In this document: one piece after another, positions 1 through 12,364 of the stretch | Position numbering within the stretch: position 1 is the stretch's first letter | How the letters are laid out: each line of letters opens with the position of its first letter | Assembly (NCBI GenBank): GCA_043718025.1 | Contig: JAYSWN010000072.1 | Span: forward strand, 1-12,364 | Source of the DNA: Pseudomonadota bacterium | Lineage (GTDB): Bacteria; Bdellovibrionota; FAC87; UBA2466 | DNA: 12,364 nt | Reading direction: 5' to 3' | Translations under genes and position numbers: made by a program | Notes under the pieces: model-generated | The model's input: the letters and a program-made list of their open reading frames with translations, nothing else | Databases searched by the model: none | Told to the model about the DNA's origin: nothing

Positions 1-1
1 T

Positions 2-313
2 AGCGGCCTCGCTCTAAAGGTTCCGGCGGGTTCAGTACAGCGATTTGAAATGGGCGTGGTGCGGCGGCGAAGCGAGCAGAGCGTGTTGATGACGGCCTAT
101 GGGGCGGATGGAACGACGCTAATGCGGCAGTGTACAGTTCCCGCGACGTCATTGTTGTCTGGTGGCCACGAAACTACGGTGTGCGAGTTTGTATTCGCCG
201 AAAATAAATTGTTGCAACAGATCTTGTTAAGCTCAGCACTGCCGGTAACGATCTTAAGTCCTATCATCGTGCAACGGCCAGTGGATGAAGATGGCCCGGT
301 CGCCAGTCGATAA
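2..313 (+). CDS. Partial CDS (5'-truncated by the window edge), C-terminus of an unknown protein
   Basis: The frame of the 50..313 ORF is open back to position 2 (SGLALKVPAGSVQRFE-MGVV...) and ends at TAA 311-313, 7 nt from the convergent stop at 321. No recognisable motif. Confidence 0.6.
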   Translation, partial: SGLALKVPAGSVQRFEMGVVRRRSEQSVLMTAYGADGTTLMRQCTVPATSLLSGGHETTVCEFVFAENKLLQQILLSSALPVTILSPIIVQRPVDEDGPVASR

Positions 314-320
314 TTAGCCA

Positions 321-2240
321 CTATTCAAATACGCGAAGGTGTCCAAAGGCCATGGGAAAAGCATTAAACTGGGGACGAATGGCAATGGCATCGAATCCCG
401 CGGTTTGGGCCGGCCGTGGAATTTGAATCGTTCGAGTTAAGATTCCCAATCCTGCGGCCGCTGGTAGCGGGGCGATTCCCACTTCCTGGTCCCCTTTGAG
501 AAAGACCAGCGTTGCATTTTTTGAGCGATCCGCGCTCAACTCGACCCTAGGCGCGTGCGATAGTGAACCCATTTCGATGAGCAGGCCGTTTTGTCCCATT
601 GGGGTGAGGCCCGAAGCATTGCTAGCGGCGCTATCCCGTACCACGGCTTGAGTCTCCGCCAGCCGAACCGAATGGCCTCCGTAGCGGTAGCGTCTTTTGT
701 CGACTAGCTGATCGTAGCGACCCAAGTTCATACTTAAAATGGCGCCCCACCTCGCTTTTGTGAAGAGATCGCCGCGGGTGATGAGCATCACTTTTTCCCA
801 GAAAACACCGAGCGCAGGATCTTTGAGCCAATTTTTTCCCGCCAGGGCCGACTCAGGGTAGCCCTCGGGAACTTCCCGCTTAAAATGTCCAATTCGCCAA
901 GTCGCGTTGTACGAGGCCGGTAATCGAGACAGCAGTGGATCGGCCAGCGAGTGCAAGTCAATAAAGTGCGCCTCTGGCCCCGCCTGGAAACCACCCAAGC
1001 CAATCAGCGTGGTGGCAACTACGCGACGGCCTCCAGAGGGAGCAGCAACTCGCAGATCGTTTCGTGAGAGTGTGGTTAAGCCGAAATAAGGCACGTACCA
1101 CGCACGCTCGTCGGCGATCCCCGCCTTTTCAAGTTTATGGCGACTTGAACTTGCCGTGAGTTGCGACCCGTTTGTGCGCAGTCCCAGCGCAATGAGCAAA
1201 CCAGCGGCAGTTATTATCGTGGCCAGTGATTTTCGCCGTTCCAGCTTAAGTGAGAGCAAAGCGAACGTTGAAGACAGCACGGTCGTCGAAAAAAATCGGC
1301 CGGCCATAAAATCTCCGCCGACCCACAACACGTAGATTAGGTGAGAAAGAATTCCGAACGTAAGGGCTAAAGTCTTCGGATTACGAAACAACAATCCCGT
1401 GGCGACGGCGGTGAAAATTACGATCACGCCCAGCGGATCAAACCTCGCAAAATTAATAAAATAGAGCAGTCCCTGACCAAGGTATTCGCCGCGATTAATT
1501 CCGGTAAGCACTTTAGCGTAGTACGGCCCGGGCAAAAAATTTCCATAGTAGACCAGGGCGAAGAGTTCCCAGGCGAAAAGGGGCGACAGTCCCAAAGCGA
1601 GCCATCCAAAAAAGTTCGGACTACCCCGATGCTTCCACAGCCCGTAGCCCAGCGGCGGCAAGAGCAGCCACAGGTTATCGAGCCGATTCACCAAGGCGAG
1701 CGAAAAAAAGAGGGTGAGCGCAAAAACCTGGTGCGGTTTTTCGGTAGGGCTAAGAAGGCGTTCTACGAATTTTGCAATTAAGAAATAAGAAAGTGCGGTT
1801 TCAAGCCCACCGGCTCCATGCTCGGTGACGGCGCGAGAAAAGAGAAGCGCCGAGGCGGCAACCAGGGCGGCTAGCGGCCCGCGGGCGATTTGTCGGGTCG
1901 CCACAAAGAGAGTTCCCATCCAGAAAAAAAAGGAGATGGCGAGCGTCGTATAAAACGGTTCGCGGGTGATGGAGTAGGCAACGGTGAGCAATAAGACCCA
2001 CAGCGGATTGGTAAAGGCTTGAACCCGCTCGGCCACGTTCCATCTTAACCCGTAGCCATTTACAAAGTTATCGACCACCCGAAGGCAGATAAAAGCATCG
2101 TCTCCCATCCACGCTAAGCGCACAAAAACGATAAGCCCCACGGCCATGGTGGTGGCCACTACCGCGCGATGGCGGATGGCGAGCGAAAGCCCCCTTGTTC
2201 GGTCTGCAAACAAAAGAAAAGGGGACCGAACGTTTTCCAT
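321..2240 (-). CDS. AftB-like (arabinofuranosyltransferase-family, GT-C fold) polytopic membrane glycosyltransferase with an extra C-terminal soluble domain
   Basis: 639 aa with many hydrophobic segments. First-loop motif WMGDDAFICLRVVDNFVNGYGLRWNVAERVQAFTNPLW (DD at aa 47-48), plus YYGNFLPGPYYAK, VGGDFMAGRF and IDLHSLADPLLSRLP...WRIGHF, all resembling AftB-family motifs. Sugar specificity cannot be read from sequence. Confidence 0.8.
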   Translation of the reverse strand: MENVRSPFLLFADRTRGLSLAIRHRAVVATTMAVGLIVFVRLAWMGDDAFICLRVVDNFVNGYGLRWNVAERVQAFTNPLWVLLLTVAYSITREPFYTTLAISFFFWMGTLFVATRQIARGPLAALVAASALLFSRAVTEHGAGGLETALSYFLIAKFVERLLSPTEKPHQVFALTLFFSLALVNRLDNLWLLLPPLGYGLWKHRGSPNFFGWLALGLSPLFAWELFALVYYGNFLPGPYYAKVLTGINRGEYLGQGLLYFINFARFDPLGVIVIFTAVATGLLFRNPKTLALTFGILSHLIYVLWVGGDFMAGRFFSTTVLSSTFALLSLKLERRKSLATIITAAGLLIALGLRTNGSQLTASSSRHKLEKAGIADERAWYVPYFGLTTLSRNDLRVAAPSGGRRVVATTLIGLGGFQAGPEAHFIDLHSLADPLLSRLPASYNATWRIGHFKREVPEGYPESALAGKNWLKDPALGVFWEKVMLITRGDLFTKARWGAILSMNLGRYDQLVDKRRYRYGGHSVRLAETQAVVRDSAASNASGLTPMGQNGLLIEMGSLSHAPRVELSADRSKNATLVFLKGDQEVGIAPLPAAAGLGILTRTIQIPRPAQTAGFDAIAIRPQFNAFPMAFGHLRVFE

Positions 2241-2270
2241 AGTGATTTTTTTTAACCTTGAGGCTCTCGC

Positions 2271-2299
2271 ATTTTAGCCAGCTTTCGTAGGGCGTTCAA
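2271..2299 (-). promoter_or_regulatory. Putative sigma70-type promoter of the AftB-like gene
   Basis: Minus strand reads TTGAAC (2299-2294), a 17-nt spacer, then TAAAAT (2276-2271), ending 30 nt upstream of the ATG at 2240. Confidence 0.6.
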
Positions 2300-2382
2300 G
2301 CCGCGCGCCCGAAGCAAGCTGTCCAGCAATGATACCCCTGGCCTACCCATTTTTTAGTTAGCGTGCTTCCATCGCCCCTACG

Positions 2383-3561
2383 ATGAGTTTAGTCATAGTT
2401 CAGCCGCACCGCTCTGCAGTTAGCGAAACTTTTATCCGCGCCCACACCCGGCTGCCGACTGCGACTACGGTATTGCACGGGTTTCCCGCTGAGTACGTGG
2501 ATGGCCCCATCCTCAGCTCAAACTTTGGCGCGCGAGCCCTGCGCCGGATAGATCGGATGCTGAGTGGAAAAGGGGCGCAGTGGGAAATGACTCGCTCGCT
2601 TCTCATCGCCTTGAAAGACTGTAAGGCCGAAGCCGTACTCGCCGAATACGGCACCACCGGCGCCCACGCGGCCGAAGCCTGCCACATTTCAGGCGTGCCA
2701 CTCATCGTTCACTTTCACGGCTACGACGCCAGCCACACGCCAACGCTTCGCCACTATGGCGAGCGGTACCGGCAAACATTTTTAGTGGCTAAAGCCTTGG
2801 TCGTGGTCTCGCGCCCGATGCAGCAAGCACTTTTAGACTTGGGGGCGCCGGCCGATAAGATTCATTTTTGTCCTTACGGCGTCGATACCGATTTCTTTTC
2901 GCCACCACCGAGTCCGGAACTTAGGCCACCTACGACGGCGCCACTTTTTATCGCGGTGGGACGCCTCGTAGAAAAAAAGGCACCGCACTTACTGCTGCTG
3001 GCCTTTGCTAATGTGCTGGCCCAGTTTCCGAAGGCGCGATTGCAAATTATAGGTGACGGGCCGTTGCGCGGTGTTTGTCGGGATTTAGTGCCCGCCTTGG
3101 CGATGGAACATGCGGTTACCTTTCTTGGTGAGCGGTCGCCGCAGCAGGTGCGCGATGCGCTTCGCGGCGCCCAAGTTTTTGTGCAGCACTCAGTGACCGC
3201 GTTTGATGGCGATAGCGAGGGCACTCCGGTTGCCATTCTCGAGGCCAGCGCCAGTGGTCTGCCGGTAGTCTCTACGCACCACGCCGGAATTTCTGAAGCG
3301 GTAATTGAGGGGGCGACGGGTTTTTTGGTCGAGCCCGGAAATAGCCAGGCCATGGCCGAACGGATGACGTTTTTATGCCGCGATTCGGCGGCGGCCCAAA
3401 GGCTGGGCGCTAACGGCCGCCAACACGTTCTGGCTAATTACGCGCAAGGGCCGCAGCTTGCCCAACTTTGGTCGGTCATCCACCAAGCCATTGAGGCCGC
3501 AAAGCAGGCGAAAAGTGTCACCGCTCTGCATCAGAGTTTGGTAATGGTTCCGGTGGGTTAA
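2383..3561 (+). CDS. Glycosyltransferase family 4 (GT-B), WcaL/AmsK-like
   Basis: 392 aa. N-terminal SETFI, VHFHGYD, VGRLVEKK, IIGDGPL, and the retaining-GT EX7E motif GDSEGTPVAILEASASGLPVVST (E codons at 3217 and 3241), followed by HAGISEAVIEGATGFLV. Confidence 0.9.
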   Translation: MSLVIVQPHRSAVSETFIRAHTRLPTATTVLHGFPAEYVDGPILSSNFGARALRRIDRMLSGKGAQWEMTRSLLIALKDCKAEAVLAEYGTTGAHAAEACHISGVPLIVHFHGYDASHTPTLRHYGERYRQTFLVAKALVVVSRPMQQALLDLGAPADKIHFCPYGVDTDFFSPPPSPELRPPTTAPLFIAVGRLVEKKAPHLLLLAFANVLAQFPKARLQIIGDGPLRGVCRDLVPALAMEHAVTFLGERSPQQVRDALRGAQVFVQHSVTAFDGDSEGTPVAILEASASGLPVVSTHHAGISEAVIEGATGFLVEPGNSQAMAERMTFLCRDSAAAQRLGANGRQHVLANYAQGPQLAQLWSVIHQAIEAAKQAKSVTALHQSLVMVPVG

Positions 3562-3654
3562 TCGTCACGCGACGGCGCCCCACCGCGTCTTCGTTTCATT
3601 AGATCTATTTTTGCGTTTGTGCTAGTTTCACGCCCAATTTTCTTTGCATCCTTT

Positions 3655-3659
3655 AGAGG
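3655..3659 (+). promoter_or_regulatory. Shine-Dalgarno (AGAGG) for the MFP gene
   Basis: AGAGG lies 5 nt before the ATG at 3665, which favours this start over the TTG at 3644. Confidence 0.55.
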
Positions 3660-3664
3660 CTCCC

Positions 3665-4537
3665 ATGAATTTATGGTTCTCCCTATTTTTGATCTTAACG
3701 CCGTGGAGCGGTGCCTTCGCTGCCATCGAAAAGCCCGGTCCTCCTTTGGTTTTCGTGGAGAAGATGAAATCTGCGGCACTGCATGACGAACTTACTTATC
3801 CCGCGCGTTTAGTTTCTAAAACCTCGGCCGCACTGCTTGCCGAAACCGACGGGGTGGTTAGAAAAATTTCGGCGCCGTTGGGCCGTGCGGTGAAGCGCGA
3901 AGAGACCGTGCTAACCATCGCCAATACCGATCCCATTTACGAATACGCCCCGATGGCGGTTCGTAGTCCCGTAGCCGGCGTGGTGAGCTCGGTTGAGGTT
4001 ACCGAAGGTAGCCGGGTGGCAAAGGGGCAACGGCTCGCTTCGGTTACCGATCCGGCGCAAGTAAAAATTTTGGTCGAAGTGGCCGCGGCCGATCTGTTTG
4101 CCATCACGCGCGGACTATCCGGCGAACTTTCCGTAAATTCGCAAGTGAAACCAATCAACGTCACCGTGATTGGCATGAGCCCCTTTGTTGATCCGGGCAC
4201 GGGTACCGCCACGGTAGAGCTTTCACTCGTTGATACCAAGAGCAAAGTTCCGCTGCCGCCGGGGCTGGTGGGCAAGGTCAGTTTTAAAGTGCGTGAGCAT
4301 CAGGGGCTACAGCTTCCTGAAAGTGCGGTGGTCTACCGCGGCCGTCTGCCGGCGGTGCGGGTGGTTGAAAGCGGTAAGGCCCGCTACGCCCCGGTTACGC
4401 TGGGGCCTTCGCGCCAGGGGCTGGTCGAGATTTCGCAGGGAGTGAAAGAAGGGGCCGAGGTTATCTTACGATCGAGCGCCTTCGTGGCCGAAGGCGAAGA
4501 GGTAAAAGTTCAACCTGCCGAAGGGCCTAAATCTTGA
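3665..4537 (+). CDS. RND efflux periplasmic adaptor subunit (membrane fusion protein), lacking the alpha-helical hairpin
   Basis: 290 aa from ATG 3665. Signal-like N-terminus (...SGAFA/A), lipoyl halves ETDGVVRKI...G.AVKREE.VL.I and VRSPVAGVVSSVEVTEGSRVAKGQRL, beta-barrel SPFVDPGTGT and LPPGL, membrane-proximal LPESAV...VTLG...VEISQGVKEG. Its stop overlaps the RND start (TTGA). Confidence 0.9.
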   Translation: MNLWFSLFLILTPWSGAFAAIEKPGPPLVFVEKMKSAALHDELTYPARLVSKTSAALLAETDGVVRKISAPLGRAVKREETVLTIANTDPIYEYAPMAVRSPVAGVVSSVEVTEGSRVAKGQRLASVTDPAQVKILVEVAAADLFAITRGLSGELSVNSQVKPINVTVIGMSPFVDPGTGTATVELSLVDTKSKVPLPPGLVGKVSFKVREHQGLQLPESAVVYRGRLPAVRVVESGKARYAPVTLGPSRQGLVEISQGVKEGAEVILRSSAFVAEGEEVKVQPAEGPKS

Positions 4538-7500
4538 GCAAACTCTACTCGTCACCCCTCAGGGTCTATTTGATGCTGGGCTTTTTGGGTCTGCTGGGAA
4601 TCTACGCCGGATTCAATCTGCCGGTATCGCTGTTTCCCAACAGTTCAAAGCCGGTGGTGTGGTTCAGCATTCCTTACGGCAACCTGACCAGCGAAGAGTT
4701 TTTAAACACCCATGGCAAGGCCATAGAAAATCAGGTTCGTGGCATTACCGTCGACAAGGCGGAGGTTGAGGTCATTCAGGCGTTTTACGGAAGGCATAGC
4801 GCCGAATTCGAAGTATTTTTTAAATGGGGAGCCATTCCCAATACCGCGCTCAAAGAGGTGCAGACGCTGGTCAACTCGTACGTTGCGCGTTTGTCCGATG
4901 AGTCGCGCGATGGCTTAAGGCTCTGGCTCAATAACGAGAACTCCGGTTTTTTTGCGGTTAGCTTTTTTAGTGAAACGCGCGATCTCGACGATCTCTATGA
5001 TTATTTAGAGCCCTTAATTGGCCCCAAAATAGCAAAAGTGAAAGACGCCCAAGACCCCGTACTGTGGAATCCTTCGAGCAAAGAGGTGCGGGTAGAGTTT
5101 AATCCCAACACCATGGCGGCCTTGGGGCTGTTTCCGCGCGACGTTGACCAAGCCATTGCCACGTCACTCGGTGGCCGCAACGGTGGTGCCCTCACCATTG
5201 GAAATTCTCGTCTGCAAGTGGAGATGCCGCGGCAACTTCAAAAGGCCGAAGACTTAAAGCACGTGCCAATTATTTCCCCGGCCGGCCGCATGGTTCATTT
5301 AGGCGATTTCGCCCACATTAGCGTTGGCCCCAAAACCCAAGACTCAAAGAGTTTCAAAACCAACGGCGCCCCGAGTTTGATCCTATTCGCCACCCCGCGC
5401 CCCGGCGGCAACGTAAAACGCATGTCGGAAGAGCTGCTTCAGGTGGTGACCGAGCTGATGCCCACTTTGCCCAAAGACATTCAATACCGGGTACTGGTTG
5501 ACCCCTCCGAGTTCATCCGGTCGGCGGTTGAAAATGTGTTTCACGAAGTGGCGATTGCCGCGTTGCTGGCGGTGTTCATTCTTTTCTTGTTCATCGGTAG
5601 CGTGCGCAACGTGATTACGGCGGCCATCGAGATTCCGCTGAGCATGATCTTGGCCTTTATTCTCATGCGTTGGACCGGAATGAATTTGAATCTGATTTCG
5701 CTGGGCGGCTTGGCCCTTTCGGCCGGCATGAACGTAGATGGTTCGGTGGTGGTGATGGAAAACATTTTTCGTCATTTCGAACTTGAGCCCGGTCCGCACG
5801 ATGCGCCGTCGCGCCTGCGCCTGGTGATGAAAGCGGTCAGCGAAGTTCGTTTCCCGATCATCGCATCCACGATTGCGTCGTTGGTGGTCTTTTTGCCGTT
5901 AACCCTAACCTCGGATTTGAGTTACGCCATTTTAGGTGACCTTGCCTACGCCGTGGTCTTTTCGCACGGTTTTTCGGCGATCGTCGCTTTGCTGCTCGTG
6001 CCCACCGTGCGCTTGCACCTGATGCAATCGGGTAAAGACGTTGGCCATTCGCACTCGCCGATCGAAAAACAGCTTAAAGGGCTGGAGAGTTGGTACGGCC
6101 GGACGCTCGGCAGGTTTTTGCTTGCTCCCAAGTTTCGTCTCGGCAGTTACGCGGGCCTTTCGTTGGCGCTCGTGTTGCTAGTGCTGCTGGTGATTCCTCG
6201 TCTGCCAAAAGAGATCGTAGGGGTGCCCGATACTGACTGGATGGTGCTTTCGATCAACACCGAGGGCAACACCCTGGTAAAGCAGATGGAAGTGCAGACC
6301 GAGGAGATCGAAAAGCAGCTGCTAACCGAGTTTGGCTCTAAGGTCCGTTACACTTTCAGCCAAGTGCGCGATCCCAACCGCGGCAACTTGATGGCGCGGC
6401 TAAAAAACAAAGGCGAAATGCGCGAGGTGTGGAAGGCCCTGGAGAAGCGCTTTACCAACACGCCTCTACTTCGTTTTTGGGTCGGGCCGTGGAACCCCAG
6501 CGAACTTCCTATTCCTAACCCTCCCGACATGCGAATTGCGGTGCGCGGAGGTACGTTGCTTGATCGGGCTAGTGTGGCCAAAGAGATTAACGATTTGATG
6601 GAGGAGAAAAAAGTTTTTCCGCGTATCGAAATGCAGCCGAAAGCTGACATGACCTTCTCGTTAGTGCTGTCGCCGTACAACGAACAGTGGGAAAGTTTGC
6701 GGCAGCAGGGGGCCCGATTTAGCGCCGGCGATCTCGCCGACTTGGTTCGTGTCGCCACGCAAGGGCGGCGTACTGCCTATTTGCCCTTGAAAGATCGTCA
6801 GACCGAGATCGTTTTTCAGTTTCCGCAAAATTATGCCACCTCCGTCGAAGACGTGGCGGCACTACCGGTTGGGGTCAGTTCTAAAATTATTCCGCTGAAA
6901 GCCTTAGCGAGGGTCGAACGGCAAGAGGCCCTTCCCTCGTTATTCAGAGAAGACCAGCGCGAGCTTTTTGTGGTTAAGGGGCGAGTCCCGAGCAACGAAC
7001 TTAAGAAAGATACGGCCCCTTACCTGGCAAAGGCCAAGCTCGCGGTCGCGGAGTGGGAAAGCAAAAGACCTAAACCGGTACCCGGAGCGGTAGCCCCTAC
7101 GGTAACCTTCGAAGAGGCTTCAACCGAGCTGAAGGACGCTATCCATCAACTGTCGGTGGCGTTGGCGCTTTCGGTGGTGCTGATCTTTTTGACCATGCTG
7201 TTTCAGTTCGGCAGCTTTGCCGAGCCCTTGCTGGTGTTGGTATCTATTCCGCTCGGGTTTATCGGGGTGTTGATTTCGCTCTTTGTTTTTGGCAGCACGC
7301 TTTCGTTGAATTCGATCTTGGGCGTGATTCTACTCAATGGGATTTCGGTGGCGAACAGCATTATTCTCGTTGATTTCATCAAACGACTGGTGGATTCGGG
7401 CATGAGTCCAAAGGAGGCAGCGATTGAAGCCGCCCAAAAACGGTTGCGCCCTATTTTGATCACTTCGCTCACTACCGTGTTGGGCATGCTGCCGGTTGCC

Positions 7501-8982
7501 ATTGGCCTGGGTGAGGGCGGTAGAATTTTGCAGCCGCTGGGCATCGCGGTGTCGGGGGGGCTATGGGTTTCAATGGGGCTGACGCTCTTTTTGGTTCCCG
7601 CTCTGCAGGTGAGTTATCTCGAATGGCGAAGCCGTGAAAATACCGGCGATGGCTTCTGGATGCGAATTTTTAGCCTGGTGAAATGGCGGCGAAACACTGG
7701 AACCGTTCCGGCGGCATTTTTTCTCGCGGTTCTGGGCACTTTTTGGAGTCAGACCGTAGTGGCCGCGCCGGCTTCGTTCGAAGCCGCTTTGCAAACAATT
7801 GTAGAACGACATCCAGATGTTGGCATTGAAAAGGCGGCGCTAAATTCGTTAGAGAGTAAAAATCTGTCGTCGCATTTAAGTCTGCTTCCGAGCATTTCCT
7901 TGTTTGCTCGGCAACGTAATGACGAAGCCTTTAGTGCCACTTCGGTAAAAAAGGGCGTAGGCCTTTCGGCAGACATCAATATTTTAAAGTTTGGTGCCGA
8001 CGTGGCGGCCATGCGCGCTGCTTCCGCCGAAGAGTCGGCACAAGAGGCCAGTGTGGTGCTGTCGGTGCTGAAAGTCGAAGCCTTGGGCGTAAAGGCACTG
8101 GCGGCGACCATTCAAGCCGAGTTGGAATTTGGCGTGCAGAAAAAAATTGTAACGATGTGGGAGGACTACCTCAAAATAGCTAGGCAGCGTTACCAGCAGG
8201 GGCGACTGGCTTCGCAGGAGGCCGACAAGGTAGAAATTGATTTTGAAAATGCCCGCGCCCAAATGCGGGATGCGGAGTCGAATGCGGTGAGCGCCCACGC
8301 CGAATTAACCGCCTATCTCGGCCAGCCGGAAGTCGAAGTGAGTTGGCCGTGGCGTGCGCTTTTAGAAGGGTACGCCGAAAAGGGGATCGCCGAACCGGGA
8401 ATAGACCTGTCGCGCCGGCCCGATTGGATTGCCGCCGAAAAGCGCAGCGTGGCCGTGGGGCATCGCGAGTCTCAAGCATTGGGTAACGCCCTGCCTTCGC
8501 TAGACGCCAATTTCACCTACGGCTACTTTGATAACCGCATGGCGGGCGTAAGTTCGAACGGCCCCGAGTGGTCAGCAAGTGTCGCCTTAACTGTGCCGCT
8601 CTTTGATAGGCTAACGAAATACGGAGATTACCGGGCAATGGTGCACCGTCGCGCCGGGGCAGAATTGGAATGGGAAAAGACAAAACGCTTCGCCAAAGCT
8701 GACTGGGAGGCGGCGGTGGGATCGCTAAACGTCTCGCTAAAAACCGCCCACGCTCGCGAAGGCACCGTGGCATTGGCCCGGCGGCTCTATGAAGATAATT
8801 TAAAACGTTTTCGCCAGGGGCTTGCCGCAGTTACCGAGGTTAGCGTAGACCAAGACCGCCTGTACCGCGCCGAAATCTTAGCGATTCGGGGCTGGAACGC
8901 CGCCCACCTGAATTTGGTTCGTTTTTGTCACGCCAAAGGGGACCGTGTGGCCATTTGCCTGAGGAGCGCCTCGGCAAAGTAA
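4534..8982 (+). CDS. RND efflux permease (AcrB/CzcA superfamily) fused in frame to a C-terminal TolC-family outer-membrane factor
   Basis: 1482 aa with a TTG start overlapping the MFP stop. aa 1 to ~1030 carry RND motifs: LPVSLFP, LFLFIGSVR...IPLS, NLISLGGLALSAGMNVDGSVVVMENI, FQFGSFAEPLLVLVSIPLG, RLRPILITSLTTVLGMLP, LQPLGIAVSGGL, LTLFLVPAL. aa ~1078-1482 carry two OEP-like repeats: LLPSISL / ALPSLDANF, RYQQGRLAS / RFRQGLAA, RRPD, LTVPLFD. Confidence 0.92.
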   Translation: MSKLYSSPLRVYLMLGFLGLLGIYAGFNLPVSLFPNSSKPVVWFSIPYGNLTSEEFLNTHGKAIENQVRGITVDKAEVEVIQAFYGRHSAEFEVFFKWGAIPNTALKEVQTLVNSYVARLSDESRDGLRLWLNNENSGFFAVSFFSETRDLDDLYDYLEPLIGPKIAKVKDAQDPVLWNPSSKEVRVEFNPNTMAALGLFPRDVDQAIATSLGGRNGGALTIGNSRLQVEMPRQLQKAEDLKHVPIISPAGRMVHLGDFAHISVGPKTQDSKSFKTNGAPSLILFATPRPGGNVKRMSEELLQVVTELMPTLPKDIQYRVLVDPSEFIRSAVENVFHEVAIAALLAVFILFLFIGSVRNVITAAIEIPLSMILAFILMRWTGMNLNLISLGGLALSAGMNVDGSVVVMENIFRHFELEPGPHDAPSRLRLVMKAVSEVRFPIIASTIASLVVFLPLTLTSDLSYAILGDLAYAVVFSHGFSAIVALLLVPTVRLHLMQSGKDVGHSHSPIEKQLKGLESWYGRTLGRFLLAPKFRLGSYAGLSLALVLLVLLVIPRLPKEIVGVPDTDWMVLSINTEGNTLVKQMEVQTEEIEKQLLTEFGSKVRYTFSQVRDPNRGNLMARLKNKGEMREVWKALEKRFTNTPLLRFWVGPWNPSELPIPNPPDMRIAVRGGTLLDRASVAKEINDLMEEKKVFPRIEMQPKADMTFSLVLSPYNEQWESLRQQGARFSAGDLADLVRVATQGRRTAYLPLKDRQTEIVFQFPQNYATSVEDVAALPVGVSSKIIPLKALARVERQEALPSLFREDQRELFVVKGRVPSNELKKDTAPYLAKAKLAVAEWESKRPKPVPGAVAPTVTFEEASTELKDAIHQLSVALALSVVLIFLTMLFQFGSFAEPLLVLVSIPLGFIGVLISLFVFGSTLSLNSILGVILLNGISVANSIILVDFIKRLVDSGMSPKEAAIEAAQKRLRPILITSLTTVLGMLPVAIGLGEGGRILQPLGIAVSGGLWVSMGLTLFLVPALQVSYLEWRSRENTGDGFWMRIFSLVKWRRNTGTVPAAFFLAVLGTFWSQTVVAAPASFEAALQTIVERHPDVGIEKAALNSLESKNLSSHLSLLPSISLFARQRNDEAFSATSVKKGVGLSADINILKFGADVAAMRAASAEESAQEASVVLSVLKVEALGVKALAATIQAELEFGVQKKIVTMWEDYLKIARQRYQQGRLASQEADKVEIDFENARAQMRDAESNAVSAHAELTAYLGQPEVEVSWPWRALLEGYAEKGIAEPGIDLSRRPDWIAAEKRSVAVGHRESQALGNALPSLDANFTYGYFDNRMAGVSSNGPEWSASVALTVPLFDRLTKYGDYRAMVHRRAGAELEWEKTKRFAKADWEAAVGSLNVSLKTAHAREGTVALARRLYEDNLKRFRQGLAAVTEVSVDQDRLYRAEILAIRGWNAAHLNLVRFCHAKGDRVAICLRSASAK
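7660..7764 (+). other. Internal signal-peptide-like linker between the RND and OMF moieties
   Basis: MRIFSLVKWRRNTGTVPAAFFLAVLGTFWSQTVVA|AP has a basic n-region, a hydrophobic h-region and a polar c-region ending in V-x-A. Confidence 0.6.
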
Positions 8983-8990
8983 ACTATTTT

Positions 8991-8994
8991 GGAG
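8991..8994 (+). promoter_or_regulatory. Shine-Dalgarno (GGAG) for the ABC-F gene
   Basis: GGAG lies 5 nt upstream of the ATG at 9000. Confidence 0.6.
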
Positions 8995-8999
8995 TAAGT

Positions 9000-10580
9000 A
9001 TGATTAGCACAACAGATCTGTCATTGGCCTTTGCCGGGCGCCGCCTTTTCGACAACGTGAACGTAAAGTTTGTGGCCGGTAATTGTTATGGATTAATCGG
9101 GGCCAACGGCGCCGGAAAATCTACCTTTCTCAAAATTTTGGCCGGGCTAGAAACCCCCTCTTCGGGCACGGTAGCCATCACCCCGGGCGAGCGGCTCTCT
9201 TTTTTGCGGCAGGACCACTTTGCCTTCGACGACCGCACGGCTTTAAAAACCGTGATCATGGGCCAACCCAAACTCAACTCGTTAATTGAAGAGCGAGAAG
9301 CACTTTACGCTAAAGCTGAGTTTTCGGATGCCGACGGCGACCGTGCCGCCGAGCTGGAGTCTGAATTTGGCGACATGAATGGCTGGAACGCTGACTCTGA
9401 TGCGGCCACCATGCTCTCGGGGCTGGGAATTGATACCGAGCTGCACGAAACTAAAATGAGTGAGCTCAACGGCTCGCAGAAAATTAAGGTACTTCTGGCC
9501 CAGGCGCTATTTGGAACTCCCGACATTCTTTTACTCGACGAACCTACCAACCATTTAGACTCTGAGGCCATTCGCTGGTTAGAAGATTTTTTGTACGACT
9601 TCGAACAAGTAGTGATCGTGGTCTCCCATGATCGTCATTTTTTGAACAAAGTCTGCACCCACATGGCCGACATCGACTTTGGTAAGATTGAGCTCTATTC
9701 GGGTAACTATGATTTTTGGTATGAGTCGAGCCAGCTCGCGCTGCGTCTGCAACAGGAAAAAAATCGTAAGTCCGACGACAAGGCCAAAGAGTTAAAAGAG
9801 TTTATCGCCCGATTTAGCGCCAACGCGTCTAAGTCAAAACAGGCCACTTCACGCAAGAAGCAGCTTGAAAAGTTGACCCTCGATGACATCAAGCCTTCTT
9901 CTCGCAAATACCCGTTCGTTGGCTTTAAGCCCGAGCGCGAGGCGGGGGATCAGCTTTTGAAAGTAGAAAACTTATCGAAAGTGATCGACGGCAAAGAGAT
10001 CTTAAGCAACGTCACCTTTACGATCAAAAAGAACGAGAAGGTGGTTTTTGTAGGCGACGAAATCGCTAGCTCCACTTTATTTGAAATATTGGTGGGCAAT
10101 CTTTTACCCGACTCTGGAACGTTCAATTGGGGAATCACCACGTCGCAGGCCTACTTTCCCAAGGAGAACGCCAAATTTTTTGAGCGCAACGACATGAACC
10201 TGATTGACTGGCTTCGGCAGTATTCAGACGAGAAAAGCGAAACGTTTATTCGGGGCTTTTTAGGGCGAATGCTTTTTTCCGGTGAAGAGACCTTGAAAAA
10301 GGTGTCGGTGCTATCCGGAGGCGAAAAGGTACGCTGCATGCTTTCGCGTATGATGCTTGGTTCGGCCAATGTGCTTTTGCTCGACGGCCCCACCAACCAT
10401 CTCGATTTGGAATCGATTACCGCGGTTAACAATGGACTGGTGCGATTTGCCGGCACCATCTTGTTCACCTCGCACGATCATCAGTTTAACCAGACCATTG
10501 CGACGCGAGTGATTGAACTCGTGGCGTGGGGTGCCGAGAGTCACGAGATGTCGTACGATCAGTACTTAGAACAGAAGTAG
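9000..10580 (+). CDS. ybiT: ABC-F family ATP-binding protein (ribosome-associated, YbiT/YkpA subfamily)
   Basis: 526 aa from ATG 9000, with two ABC domains and no TM segments. Motifs: GANGAGKST, LLLDEPTNHLD, VSHDRHFLN, YSGNYDFW, linker FIARFSANASKSKQATSRKK, LSGGEKVRC, LLLDGPTNHLDLESI, SHDH. The subfamily call rests on recalled similarity. Confidence 0.9.
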   Translation: MISTTDLSLAFAGRRLFDNVNVKFVAGNCYGLIGANGAGKSTFLKILAGLETPSSGTVAITPGERLSFLRQDHFAFDDRTALKTVIMGQPKLNSLIEEREALYAKAEFSDADGDRAAELESEFGDMNGWNADSDAATMLSGLGIDTELHETKMSELNGSQKIKVLLAQALFGTPDILLLDEPTNHLDSEAIRWLEDFLYDFEQVVIVVSHDRHFLNKVCTHMADIDFGKIELYSGNYDFWYESSQLALRLQQEKNRKSDDKAKELKEFIARFSANASKSKQATSRKKQLEKLTLDDIKPSSRKYPFVGFKPEREAGDQLLKVENLSKVIDGKEILSNVTFTIKKNEKVVFVGDEIASSTLFEILVGNLLPDSGTFNWGITTSQAYFPKENAKFFERNDMNLIDWLRQYSDEKSETFIRGFLGRMLFSGEETLKKVSVLSGGEKVRCMLSRMMLGSANVLLLDGPTNHLDLESITAVNNGLVRFAGTILFTSHDHQFNQTIATRVIELVAWGAESHEMSYDQYLEQK

Positions 10581-10582
10581 AT

Positions 10583-11512
10583 TTGGCTAAACGGTTTCAA
10601 AAGGTAAATATCGAGATCAGCAACATCTGCAACTTGCAGTGTAGCTTTTGTCCCCCGGTTAACCGTAAAAAGGGGATGATGGAACCGGCGCTTTTTGCCG
10701 ACATTATTCGCGCCGTGGCCCCGCTCACCGAACAGGTCTGTTTTCATTTGATGGGCGACCCGCTAGTGCACCCTGAATTGACGACGCTACTCGACATCTG
10801 CCAACGGCATGCCACGCGCGTATTTTTTGTTACCAATGGGGTTCTGCTCAGCGATAAAGCCGCCGTCCTGCTTATGCATCCGGCCCTTCGACAAGTTAAT
10901 TTTTCTCTGCACAGCTTTCACGATAACTACGGTGACAAAGACCCAACCCCCTACCTGCAAAAGATTTTTGCATACACTGAACGCGCTTTTGAAATTAGGC
11001 CCGATCTCTATATCAATTACCGAATTTGGAATTTGCAAGAAGCGCGCGGTAGCACCGTGATGCAAACGGATATTCTTTCGGCCGTTGAAAAGCGTTTCGG
11101 AGTCACCGTAAATCGTGACCCCAACGTGCGGCACCGTAAAGGGCACCGCCTTAAGCATCGGCTTTATGTTCATTACGACACTGAATTTGTCTGGCCTGAT
11201 TTGAATCTGCCGCTACTCGGTGAAGAGGGGCGCTGCCATGGACTCAGCACCCATTTCGGAATTTTGGTGGATGGCACGGTGGTGCCTTGTTGTTTAGACA
11301 AAGAAGGAAAGATTGCTCTGGGAAACGTAACCTCGGCGCCGCTTACCCAGATTCTGGATTCTCCGCGCGCTAAGGCCATGGTTACCGGTTTCCAAAACGG
11401 GAAGTTGGTCGAAGAACTTTGCCGTCGTTGTCAGTACATTGAGCGTTTTCCGAAACTAAAGAAAAACCTACGGGCTAGCGATGAAAATTCGGCACGGGGA
11501 ATTGGGGCATGA
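10583..11512 (+). CDS. Radical SAM protein with a C-terminal SPASM/twitch-type Fe-S domain
   Basis: Likely TTG start at 10583, 2 nt after the ABC-F stop (MAKRFQKVNIEISNI..., 309 aa). CNLQCSFC is a CxxxCxxC motif (10628-10651), followed by MGDPLVHP, VTNG and C-terminal CHG...GILVDGTVVPCCLD...LGNV...LCRRC. Confidence 0.88.
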   Translation: MAKRFQKVNIEISNICNLQCSFCPPVNRKKGMMEPALFADIIRAVAPLTEQVCFHLMGDPLVHPELTTLLDICQRHATRVFFVTNGVLLSDKAAVLLMHPALRQVNFSLHSFHDNYGDKDPTPYLQKIFAYTERAFEIRPDLYINYRIWNLQEARGSTVMQTDILSAVEKRFGVTVNRDPNVRHRKGHRLKHRLYVHYDTEFVWPDLNLPLLGEEGRCHGLSTHFGILVDGTVVPCCLDKEGKIALGNVTSAPLTQILDSPRAKAMVTGFQNGKLVEELCRRCQYIERFPKLKKNLRASDENSARGIGA

Positions 11513-12068
11513 GGCTCTGTTCCACTTCGCTTAGCCGTTGCACGTCTTCTTGCGTACGCTGAATGATTGTGACGATGGTTTTTACATCGGCCCACTCCAG
11601 CATTTTGAGCCTGGCCAGAGCATCGTTGCGCAGGCTTGAAGCGGCCGATTCGTCGCCCAACATTAGGCGGCCGACCTTGGCCGACCAGCTGTCTAGCGTG
11701 TCTAAATAGAAGAACAACAGTTCATCTCGGCACAATTCGGTAAGTGCTTTGTTGCTGTCGTGAAACGAGATCATGGTAACCCGCCGATCTCTTTCTTCGC
11801 AACCTAAGGTGCGCCCCTTGGTTTCAACCCAACGGACCAGCTTTTTATCGAAGCTGGTCAGGCTGCTCTCTTTGGATCGGATGATGGCTTTGAATTGGGA
11901 AAAGAGCCTGAGCCAGTCGCCGTACCGGCTTATCACCGCGGCTTCGAGCGCCAATCTAAAAAGCGATAGCGAGGTGCCTTCATCGCTGCGGTTTGAGGCT
12001 TTTACTTCGCGTAACGATTTTAGGGCTAGATCCGAAAGGGTGATGACTAAGGATGAACTACGAAACAT
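11475..12068 (-). CDS. Hypothetical protein (197 aa, appears soluble and mostly alpha-helical)
   Basis: Long open frame with ATG at 12068, preceded by GGAGGT at 7-nt spacing and by a sigma54-like promoter. No recognisable motif. Its 3' end overlaps the rSAM gene by 38 nt. Confidence 0.75.
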   Translation of the reverse strand: MFRSSSLVITLSDLALKSLREVKASNRSDEGTSLSLFRLALEAAVISRYGDWLRLFSQFKAIIRSKESSLTSFDKKLVRWVETKGRTLGCEERDRRVTMISFHDSNKALTELCRDELLFFYLDTLDSWSAKVGRLMLGDESAASSLRNDALARLKMLEWADVKTIVTIIQRTQEDVQRLSEVEQSLMPQFPVPNFHR

Positions 12069-12075
12069 GCGACCG

Positions 12076-12081
12076 ACCTCC
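12076..12081 (-). promoter_or_regulatory. Shine-Dalgarno GGAGGT
   Basis: Minus strand reads GTGGAGGTCGGTCGC-ATG. Confidence 0.75.
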
Positions 12082-12100
12082 ACCTTGTGCTTAGTACTTC

Positions 12101-12116
12101 AGCAAGCCACATGCCG
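12101..12116 (-). promoter_or_regulatory. Putative sigma54 (RpoN) -24/-12 promoter
   Basis: Minus strand reads CGGCATG-TGGC-TTGCT against consensus TGGCACG-N4-TTGCW, with exact GG-N10-GC spacing. This predicts a TSS near 12090, just upstream of the SD. Confidence 0.7.
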
Positions 12117-12172
12117 AATTATTACCCGGTGTATTCACGCTTGGAATACGAAGGTGTCTTAAAGATCTCATG

Positions 12173-12284
12173 CCTACGCGCTTCTCAAAGGTGCCCAAAC
12201 GCGCTTTTTACTGACGCCGAGGTTCTTTTTTGCGCGAGGCTTCGATTGGAGTGGGTTGTTTCCTACGAGAGTTTCTCAAAAGTG
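12173..12284. repeat. Imperfect direct repeat pair CCTACG-N3/5-TTCTCAAARGTG
   Basis: Copies are 12173-12193 (cctacgcgcttctcaaaggtg) and 12262-12284 (cctacgagagtttctcaaaagtg). The 12-nt cores are 11/12 identical and 91 nt apart. Confidence 0.4.
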
Positions 12285-12320
12285 GTATTTCGCCGTCATT
12301 GCGTCTATGGAAAAGGAACA

Positions 12321-12360
12321 CAAGGGAAAAAGACTCCCCTGACAAGAGCTAGGCCCTTGT
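12321..12360 (-). terminator. Tandem hairpins, possible terminator or structured RNA element
   Basis: Minus strand reads ACAAGGGC-CUA-GCUCUUGU, then CAGGGGAG-UCUUU-UUCCCUUG (both fully paired with G-U), followed by UGUUCCUUUU. Context is cut by the window end. Confidence 0.3.
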
Positions 12361-12364
12361 TTTT

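Follow-up and report, generated by a model that had tools for sequence, protein, structure and literature searches.

How a cell could deliver a channel to its outer membrane when the coding sequence of that channel simply continues the frame of an inner membrane pump is the question raised by a locus of a Pseudomonadota bacterium (GTDB lineage Bdellovibrionota; FAC87; UBA2466). The window, i.e., the whole stretch of DNA analysed here, comprises the 12,364 nucleotides of contig JAYSWN010000072.1 (positions 1 to 12,364 of the forward strand; assembly GCA_043718025.1). Behind a gene for a periplasmic adaptor, it holds a stop-free frame (4534-8982; 1482 aa from a TTG start) in which a resistance-nodulation-division (RND) permease is followed by a TolC-fold channel, or outer membrane factor (OMF). 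We consider it likely, from sequence comparisons, that this single RND-OMF chain is a polyprotein, and that signal peptidase I (SPase I) would cut it after Ala1077, at an export signal retained by the channel. A preliminary description of this DNA had proposed the same cut and the release of a 405-residue OMF; comparison with relatives supports that proposal, which is still read from sequences.

The two parts of the frame belong to the families named. The ACR_tran domain (PF00873) covers residues 17-1024 with 535 bits against a cut-off of 28, and the OEP match (PF02321) begins at residue 1082, with both repeats above the cut-off. The TGA of the adaptor gene overlaps the TTG of the RND gene (TTGA, 4534-4537), an overlap of the type found in split RND/OMF pairs, and an alignment of 53 proteins backs the TTG start through its consensus N-terminus. 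In the database, the gene call (P0002) has 1469 aa, 13 residues fewer, which is the length expected from ATG 4573. An assembly or frameshift artefact was considered and rejected. Positions 7300-8200 are spanned by contigs of two runs (X1 and X2) with zero differences or gaps, these runs being possibly the source of the window and not independent of it, and fused relatives with 68-77% identity occur in other records. Stops flagged within the matches of five genomes (G010, G021, G035, G036, G037) fall outside the junction, and both domains share a stop-free frame.

Both domains were present in 58 of the best 120 of 1184 homologues (the window's own protein included), the other 62 being RND only. 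Named homologues were labelled Bdellovibrionota, Bdellovibrionales, Oligoflexia or Bacteriovoracia. NCBI names five fused relatives as RND permeases only, so the channel has been overlooked in their annotation. A search of 301 genomes of the phylum with an OMF profile gave 56 loci in 55 genomes, of which 19 were fused, 35 were split and two could not be classified; a pattern scan of the genome contigs found two distant RND loci only. In the split pairs, the OMF mostly begins with a short classical signal. Its start overlaps the RND stop as NTGA (ATGA, GTGA or TTGA) in 29 of 35 loci, and at least five open codons of the OMF frame overlap the RND tail in 29 of 35. The distance from transmembrane segment 12 (TM12) to OMF helix 1 is nearly equal in the two states (median 56 residues in fused loci vs 60 codons in split loci), which fits a small frameshift in the RND tail joining the frames. 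One genome with a fused gene also has a second, standalone OMF of the same family (L083; G007:C4:1174219-1175400), with a signal-like segment and no RND gene upstream.

The segment that joins the two domains in the window protein starts at W1031 (position 7624) and includes M1043 (ATG 7660) and a basic KWRR stretch (1050-1053). It continues with AAFFLAVLG and TFWSQTVVA-APASFEAAL, in which V1075, V1076 and A1077 (codon 7762-7764) are followed by A1078 at +1 and P1079 at +2. The letters are as the preliminary description gave them, i.e., a basic n-region after TM12, an h-region and a V-x-A c-region with Pro at +2, and the same layout recurs in fused relatives. The reading of the n-region needs correction, however: it is present, but is most likely the RND permease's own cytoplasmic tail and not an old OMF N-terminus.

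Candidate cleavage sites were scored with a position matrix for which the -3/-1 rule served as the seed and the N-terminal signals of 38 split OMFs as the training set. These came mainly from genome loci, the search for standalone OMFs yielding just 10 proteins, and G208 was left out of the training. We applied the matrix to 64 distinct fused linkers, with 750 hydrophobic peaks of RND parts as controls. The top site in the window protein was Ala1077/Ala1078, at 7.2 bits, the next scoring 1.6. Median site scores were 7.5 for the fused linkers and -0.6 for the RND peaks. The mean of the fused linkers (7.8) exceeded all 500 shuffles of the c-region (mean 5.05), and in 40 representatives at 50% OMF identity the mean was 6.89 vs 4.66, with 0 of 500 shuffles as high and 22 of the 40 above 6.2, the 95th percentile of the controls. 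A small residue at -1 together with a small or aliphatic one at -3 was kept in 55 of 64 linkers; Ala stood at -1 in 51 of the 64, compared with 23% of control sites, and Pro at +1 in two, the window protein (V-V-A/A-P) not among them. An h-region was found in all 64, and the net charge upstream of it was positive in 63 (+3 in the window protein). The 19-residue hydropathy of the segment in the window protein was 1.61, compared with 1.74-2.93 for its other strongly hydrophobic RND peaks. With regard to a lipoprotein signal, Cys was absent from the window linker, and a lipobox-like motif occurred in one of the 64. Unlike N-terminal signals, this one sits some 1040 residues from the protein start and has no conserved start codon, and the linker around it conserves neither its sequence nor its length, which ranges from 41 to 181 residues.

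Several points weigh against cleavage of one chain by SPase I. Fused linkers are more hydrophobic than split signals (median 19-residue hydropathy 1.77 vs 1.56, with 2.09 for RND peaks), which is a drift towards an anchor. Fewer of them lie above the 95th percentile of the controls (39 of 64 vs 32 of 38 true signals, leave-one-out), and at the best site of nine of the 64 the -3/-1 rule is broken. The matrix had that rule built in and only 38 related sequences to learn from, and related genomes are not independent. Furthermore, 16 of the 19 fused loci hold an in-frame ATG, GTG or TTG, five of the 19 (G001, G003, G021, G024, G030) have a start-type codon with a ribosome-site energy of -4 kcal/mol or lower, and the nearest protein, P0003, has Val at the position of Met1043, as seen at the protein level.

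The last of these points bear on an alternative that we judge unlikely, namely that a start nested in the linker, either ATG 7660 or GTG 7678, gives rise to a separately translated OMF whose N-terminal signal is an ordinary one, the long frame being tolerated read-through. ATG 7660 does stand ahead of a complete n/h/c segment. Ribosome-site energies were calculated with the genome's 16S tail, a canonical anti-Shine-Dalgarno sequence, and the count left out G208 and G146, which have unclear starts. ATG 7660 reached -2.7 and GTG 7678 0.1 kcal/mol; the median of split OMF starts was -6.1, and 26 of these 33 starts had -4 or less. The preliminary description likewise saw no clear Shine-Dalgarno sequence before ATG 7660. 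A weak ribosome site does not exclude a start, since just 43% of 1156 likely true starts in the window's genome reach -4. The position of M1043, 17 residues ahead of the h-window, where split OMF starts lie a median of three ahead (33 loci, maximum 19), makes it probably part of the RND tail. Among the fused loci, an ATG precedes the h-region in just seven of 19, and three of 19 (the congener G002, G034 and G181) are without any ATG, GTG or TTG before it. Two other congeners, G001 and G003, have a common GTG with energies of -4.0 and -6.0, and the TTG codons of G021, G024 and G030 range from -4.2 to -8.4; overall, 6 of 27 candidate codons reach -4 vs 14% of 2182 internal ATGs in the window's genome. 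Only 11 of 64 linkers have a Met 10 residues or fewer from the h-region, and Met makes up 1.5% of n-region residues vs 2.0% in whole proteins. Moreover, the full-length chain would carry the same signal regardless, so a cut would still be needed. At the junctions of one clade (L008, L011 and L012, in G024, G030 and G021, respectively), an in-frame TTG follows a purine-rich run, and a nested start may operate there.

An AlphaFold2 (AF2) model of residues 894-1482, built from a 53-row alignment, was confident for the RND helices and the OMF (mean predicted local distance difference test score (pLDDT) 91.9, predicted TM-score 0.69). The OMF was mostly above 90 and had two beta-hairpins. The linker was of low confidence (about 50-65), with a helix at 1041-1054, a second at 1060-1068 and a coil up to OMF helix 1 at 1082. 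Foldseek matched the model to TolC (E 6e-17; TM by target 0.70-0.76). In such channels, helix H1 lies in the equatorial belt, at the middle of a periplasmic barrel of about 100 Å (PMC8277102). Residue 14 of mature TolC pairs with position 12 of the profile, which puts F1082 near residue 3; if there is no gap, the OMF released after Ala1077 would extend about two residues beyond the N-terminus of mature TolC.

These dimensions bear on a further alternative, that the chain stays uncut. The h-region would then be a permanent 13th helix and the channel would remain covalently bound to its pump, with trans-envelope assembly helped by direct docking. The hydrophobicity of the linkers, intermediate between that of signals and membrane helices, would suit such an arrangement, as would an adaptor without a hairpin, which brings pump and channel nearer (PMC3807786). 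The end of the h-window is followed by 14 residues before OMF helix 1 in the window protein; the median is also 14, with 25 or fewer in 58 of 64 linkers and at least 35 in the other six. The RND headpiece measures about 70 Å. Fourteen residues reach at most about 50 Å (3.6 Å per residue), short of an H1 that lies about 50 Å above the channel tip with the headpiece in addition, and an uncut tether of this length looks too short, as judged from these dimensions and not from a model of the assembled pump. The linker is moreover unconserved and modelled with low confidence, while the -3/-1 pattern is kept. We therefore regard an uncut tether as very improbable. In P0052, P0045 and P0042, Ala/Pro/Ser-rich spacers of 134, 72 and 55 residues, respectively, separate the predicted cleavage site from OMF helix 1, and only in cases of this type would an uncut tether be long enough.

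Without SPase I, uncleaved signals keep exported proteins anchored to the inner membrane (PMC9360617). Three S26 peptidases, all with motifs for the catalytic Ser and Lys, are encoded in the window's genome, and one of them passes the TIGR02227 cut-off. The genome also contains a 780-aa, BamA-sized frame of the Omp85 family (E 3e-48). We give little credence to a separation of the chain by some other protease of the membrane or periplasm, such as a rhomboid or RseP. RseP cuts inside membrane segments (PMC9360617), and the nine best sites that break the -3/-1 rule would be compatible with such an enzyme, but the Ala-rich -3/-1 spacing and the distance to the h-region fit split signals better than shuffles do. 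The least credible alternative, that the fused OMF is a dead end which stays unassembled while the pump borrows one of the seven other OMF frames of the genome (G000), conflicts with the unbroken OMF frame of all 19 fused loci and of 58 fused clusters, whose identities go down to 23%, with the retention of the family-invariant OMF columns in the fused channel, and with its confident fold.

If SPase I does cut the polyprotein, the basic tail after TM12 would remain cytoplasmic, and the h-region, as a 13th segment with its N-terminal side in and its C-terminal side out, would enter the Sec translocon, leading to export of the OMF. Cleavage at V-V-A/A-P would then yield a 405-residue OMF for assembly into a trimer by the beta-barrel assembly machinery (BAM), and the RND permease would retain a short stub, possibly trimmed. 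Synthesis of pump and channel protomers would be fixed at a ratio of 1:1. With a hairpin-less, BesA-like adaptor, the pump would likely dock to the channel directly.

The adaptor itself carries a predicted SPase I-type signal with a site after Ala19 (score 9.4). Its gene was present in 45 of 54 loci, the remaining nine being truncated stretches, and in each of the 44 covered loci, whether fused or split, a span of 37 residues separates its lipoyl halves. The AF2 model (mean pLDDT 93.4) is nearly all beta, with a loop of about 10 residues joining the lipoyl halves, and the top eight Foldseek matches were all BesA chains. Hairpin-bearing adaptors match the adaptor profile in two pieces, e.g., ZneB, where nine profile positions face an 80-residue gap, and BesA (4KKS) was the sole solved adaptor to match it continuously. 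The adaptor is thus predicted, from models and profiles, to be without an alpha-hairpin and BesA-like in all 44 covered loci, outside the spirochetes. As split loci share the hairpin-less adaptor, the loss of the hairpin characterises the family and did not follow from fusion.

The RND part is related end to end to MdtB (9lyq, E 1e-66), its best solved relative, and fell below the curated cut-off of every NCBIfam family among the matches listed. In AcrB, the proton relay consists of D407, D408, K940, R971 and T978 (PMC8277102). Here, Asp402 corresponds to D407, leaving a single relay Asp in TM4, and the RLRP motif is kept, but D408 is replaced by Gly403 and the TM10 lysine by Ala940; 45 of 54 loci, of either state, have Ala at this lysine position. 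Because these residues differ, we regard the protein as a divergent RND permease and not an AcrB orthologue.

On the RND tree, fused genes were not monophyletic (approximately unbiased test, p-AU 0.0018), and the RND and OMF trees required at least six to seven changes of state, two of them forced by strongly supported branches. The fused arrangement thus appears, on sequence evidence, to have been gained or lost several times among relatives. These were quick trees with midpoint roots, which leave the direction of each change unsettled, and the RND trees left out seven of the 54 loci, whose RND parts are partial. The frames may have been joined by a small deletion or frameshift within the RND tail, which is unconserved, either more than once or with reversions. 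In sum, we think it reasonably likely that this family of Bdellovibrionota type toggles between overlapping genes and a single polyprotein, in which SPase I would cut an internal signal that has no start codon, with 1:1 supply and direct docking by way of the hairpin-less adaptor.

The features of the locus are collected in Table 1.

Table 1. Positions in the window of the adaptor gene and of the successive parts of the fused frame.
Feature	Position	Strand	Remarks
Periplasmic adaptor (membrane fusion protein/periplasmic adaptor protein, MFP/PAP)	3665..4537	+	290 aa from ATG 3665; TIGR01730 above cut-off
RND permease part, residues 1-1030	4534..7623	+	MdtB/HAE1-like, divergent; TTG start; PF00873 E 3e-160
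Basic cytoplasmic tail after TM12, residues 1031-1059, probably acting as n-region	7624..7710	+	contains ATG 7660, an unlikely start
h-region AAFFLAVLG, residues 1060-1068, predicted 13th membrane segment	7711..7737	+	short AF2 helix, pLDDT about 50-55
c-region TFWSQTVVA, residues 1069-1077, with predicted SPase I site V-V-A/A-P at its end	7738..7764	+	best matrix site; AF2 coil
Predicted mature OMF, 405 aa, TolC fold, without lipobox cysteine	7765..8982	+	two OEP repeats; AF2; Foldseek

A scan of 3400-9300 gave four promoter-like sites (shuffle mean 2.2), each of which lies on the minus strand. The terminator-like stem at 7697-7711 can be attributed to chance, as it is one of 12 in the same interval, for which the shuffle mean is 9.8. 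On the minus strand, 321-2240 encodes a 639-aa membrane protein with zero Pfam matches and a weak N-terminal match to NF041481 (terminal arabinofuranosyltransferase, E 6e-9, far below cut-off); a GT4-type glycosyltransferase gene (2383-3561) adjoins it. Directly downstream of the fused frame, on the same strand, 9003-11512 encodes an ABC-F-like ATPase (two ABC domains and ABC_tran_Xtn) and a radical SAM/SPASM protein, and a 202-aa open reading frame with zero Pfam matches lies on the minus strand at 11475-12083.

In its composition and order, i.e., adaptor, RND permease and TolC-fold channel, the locus resembles AcrAB-TolC, MexAB-OprM and MdtABC as these are described in PMC8277102. Unlike those split tripartite pumps, it has RND and OMF in one frame with an internal signal, an OMF without a lipobox and a different relay. 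With BesABC of Borrelia burgdorferi it shares the hairpin-less adaptor, the lipoyl halves of BesA being joined by a nine-residue loop (PMC3807786, PMC4446572). In that system, the genes besC, besA and besB are distinct but transcribed together, and BesA is reported to be lipidated, whereas here the adaptor signal is predicted to be of SPase I type and the OMF is fused behind the RND permease. The absence of the hairpin in BesA was judged incompatible with tip-to-tip assembly (PMC3807786), and similar hairpin-less adaptors were noted in spirochetes and, rarely, in proteobacteria (PMC3807786, PMC4446572). Common descent of the hairpin loss with that of BesA is not shown, the identity being about 20%.

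To our knowledge, bacterial polyproteins cut by a signal peptidase are rare, FbcH being the case that we can name. FbcH, the cytochrome b-c1 precursor of Bradyrhizobium japonicum, is said to consist of a polytopic inner membrane protein followed by an internal signal peptide, at which leader peptidase cuts to free a second protein. Both of its products reportedly remain in the inner membrane, unlike the second product of the RND-OMF chain, which would reach the outer membrane. In further contrast to FbcH, the RND-OMF join interconverts with split genes inside one family. We found no description of a natural RND-OMF fusion or of its processing in the literature searched, which consisted mostly of titles and the starts of abstracts, without subscription journals or supplements; the accessible parts of PMC8277102, PMC4446572, PMC10434189 and PMC12669032 describe no natural RND-OMF fusion.

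Each part of this system is an ordinary member of its family (RND, TolC or adaptor), and the products freed by cleavage would themselves be ordinary pump parts; the mode of their synthesis would resemble that reported for the FbcH precursor. The locus would let one ask whether Sec and SPase I process a signal that follows some 1040 residues of a polytopic protein, whether a substrate that originates in a polyprotein is accepted by BAM, and whether there is selection for a fixed pump:channel stoichiometry. The hairpin-less adaptor family, in turn, offers a setting outside pathogens in which to study direct docking of RND permease and OMF.

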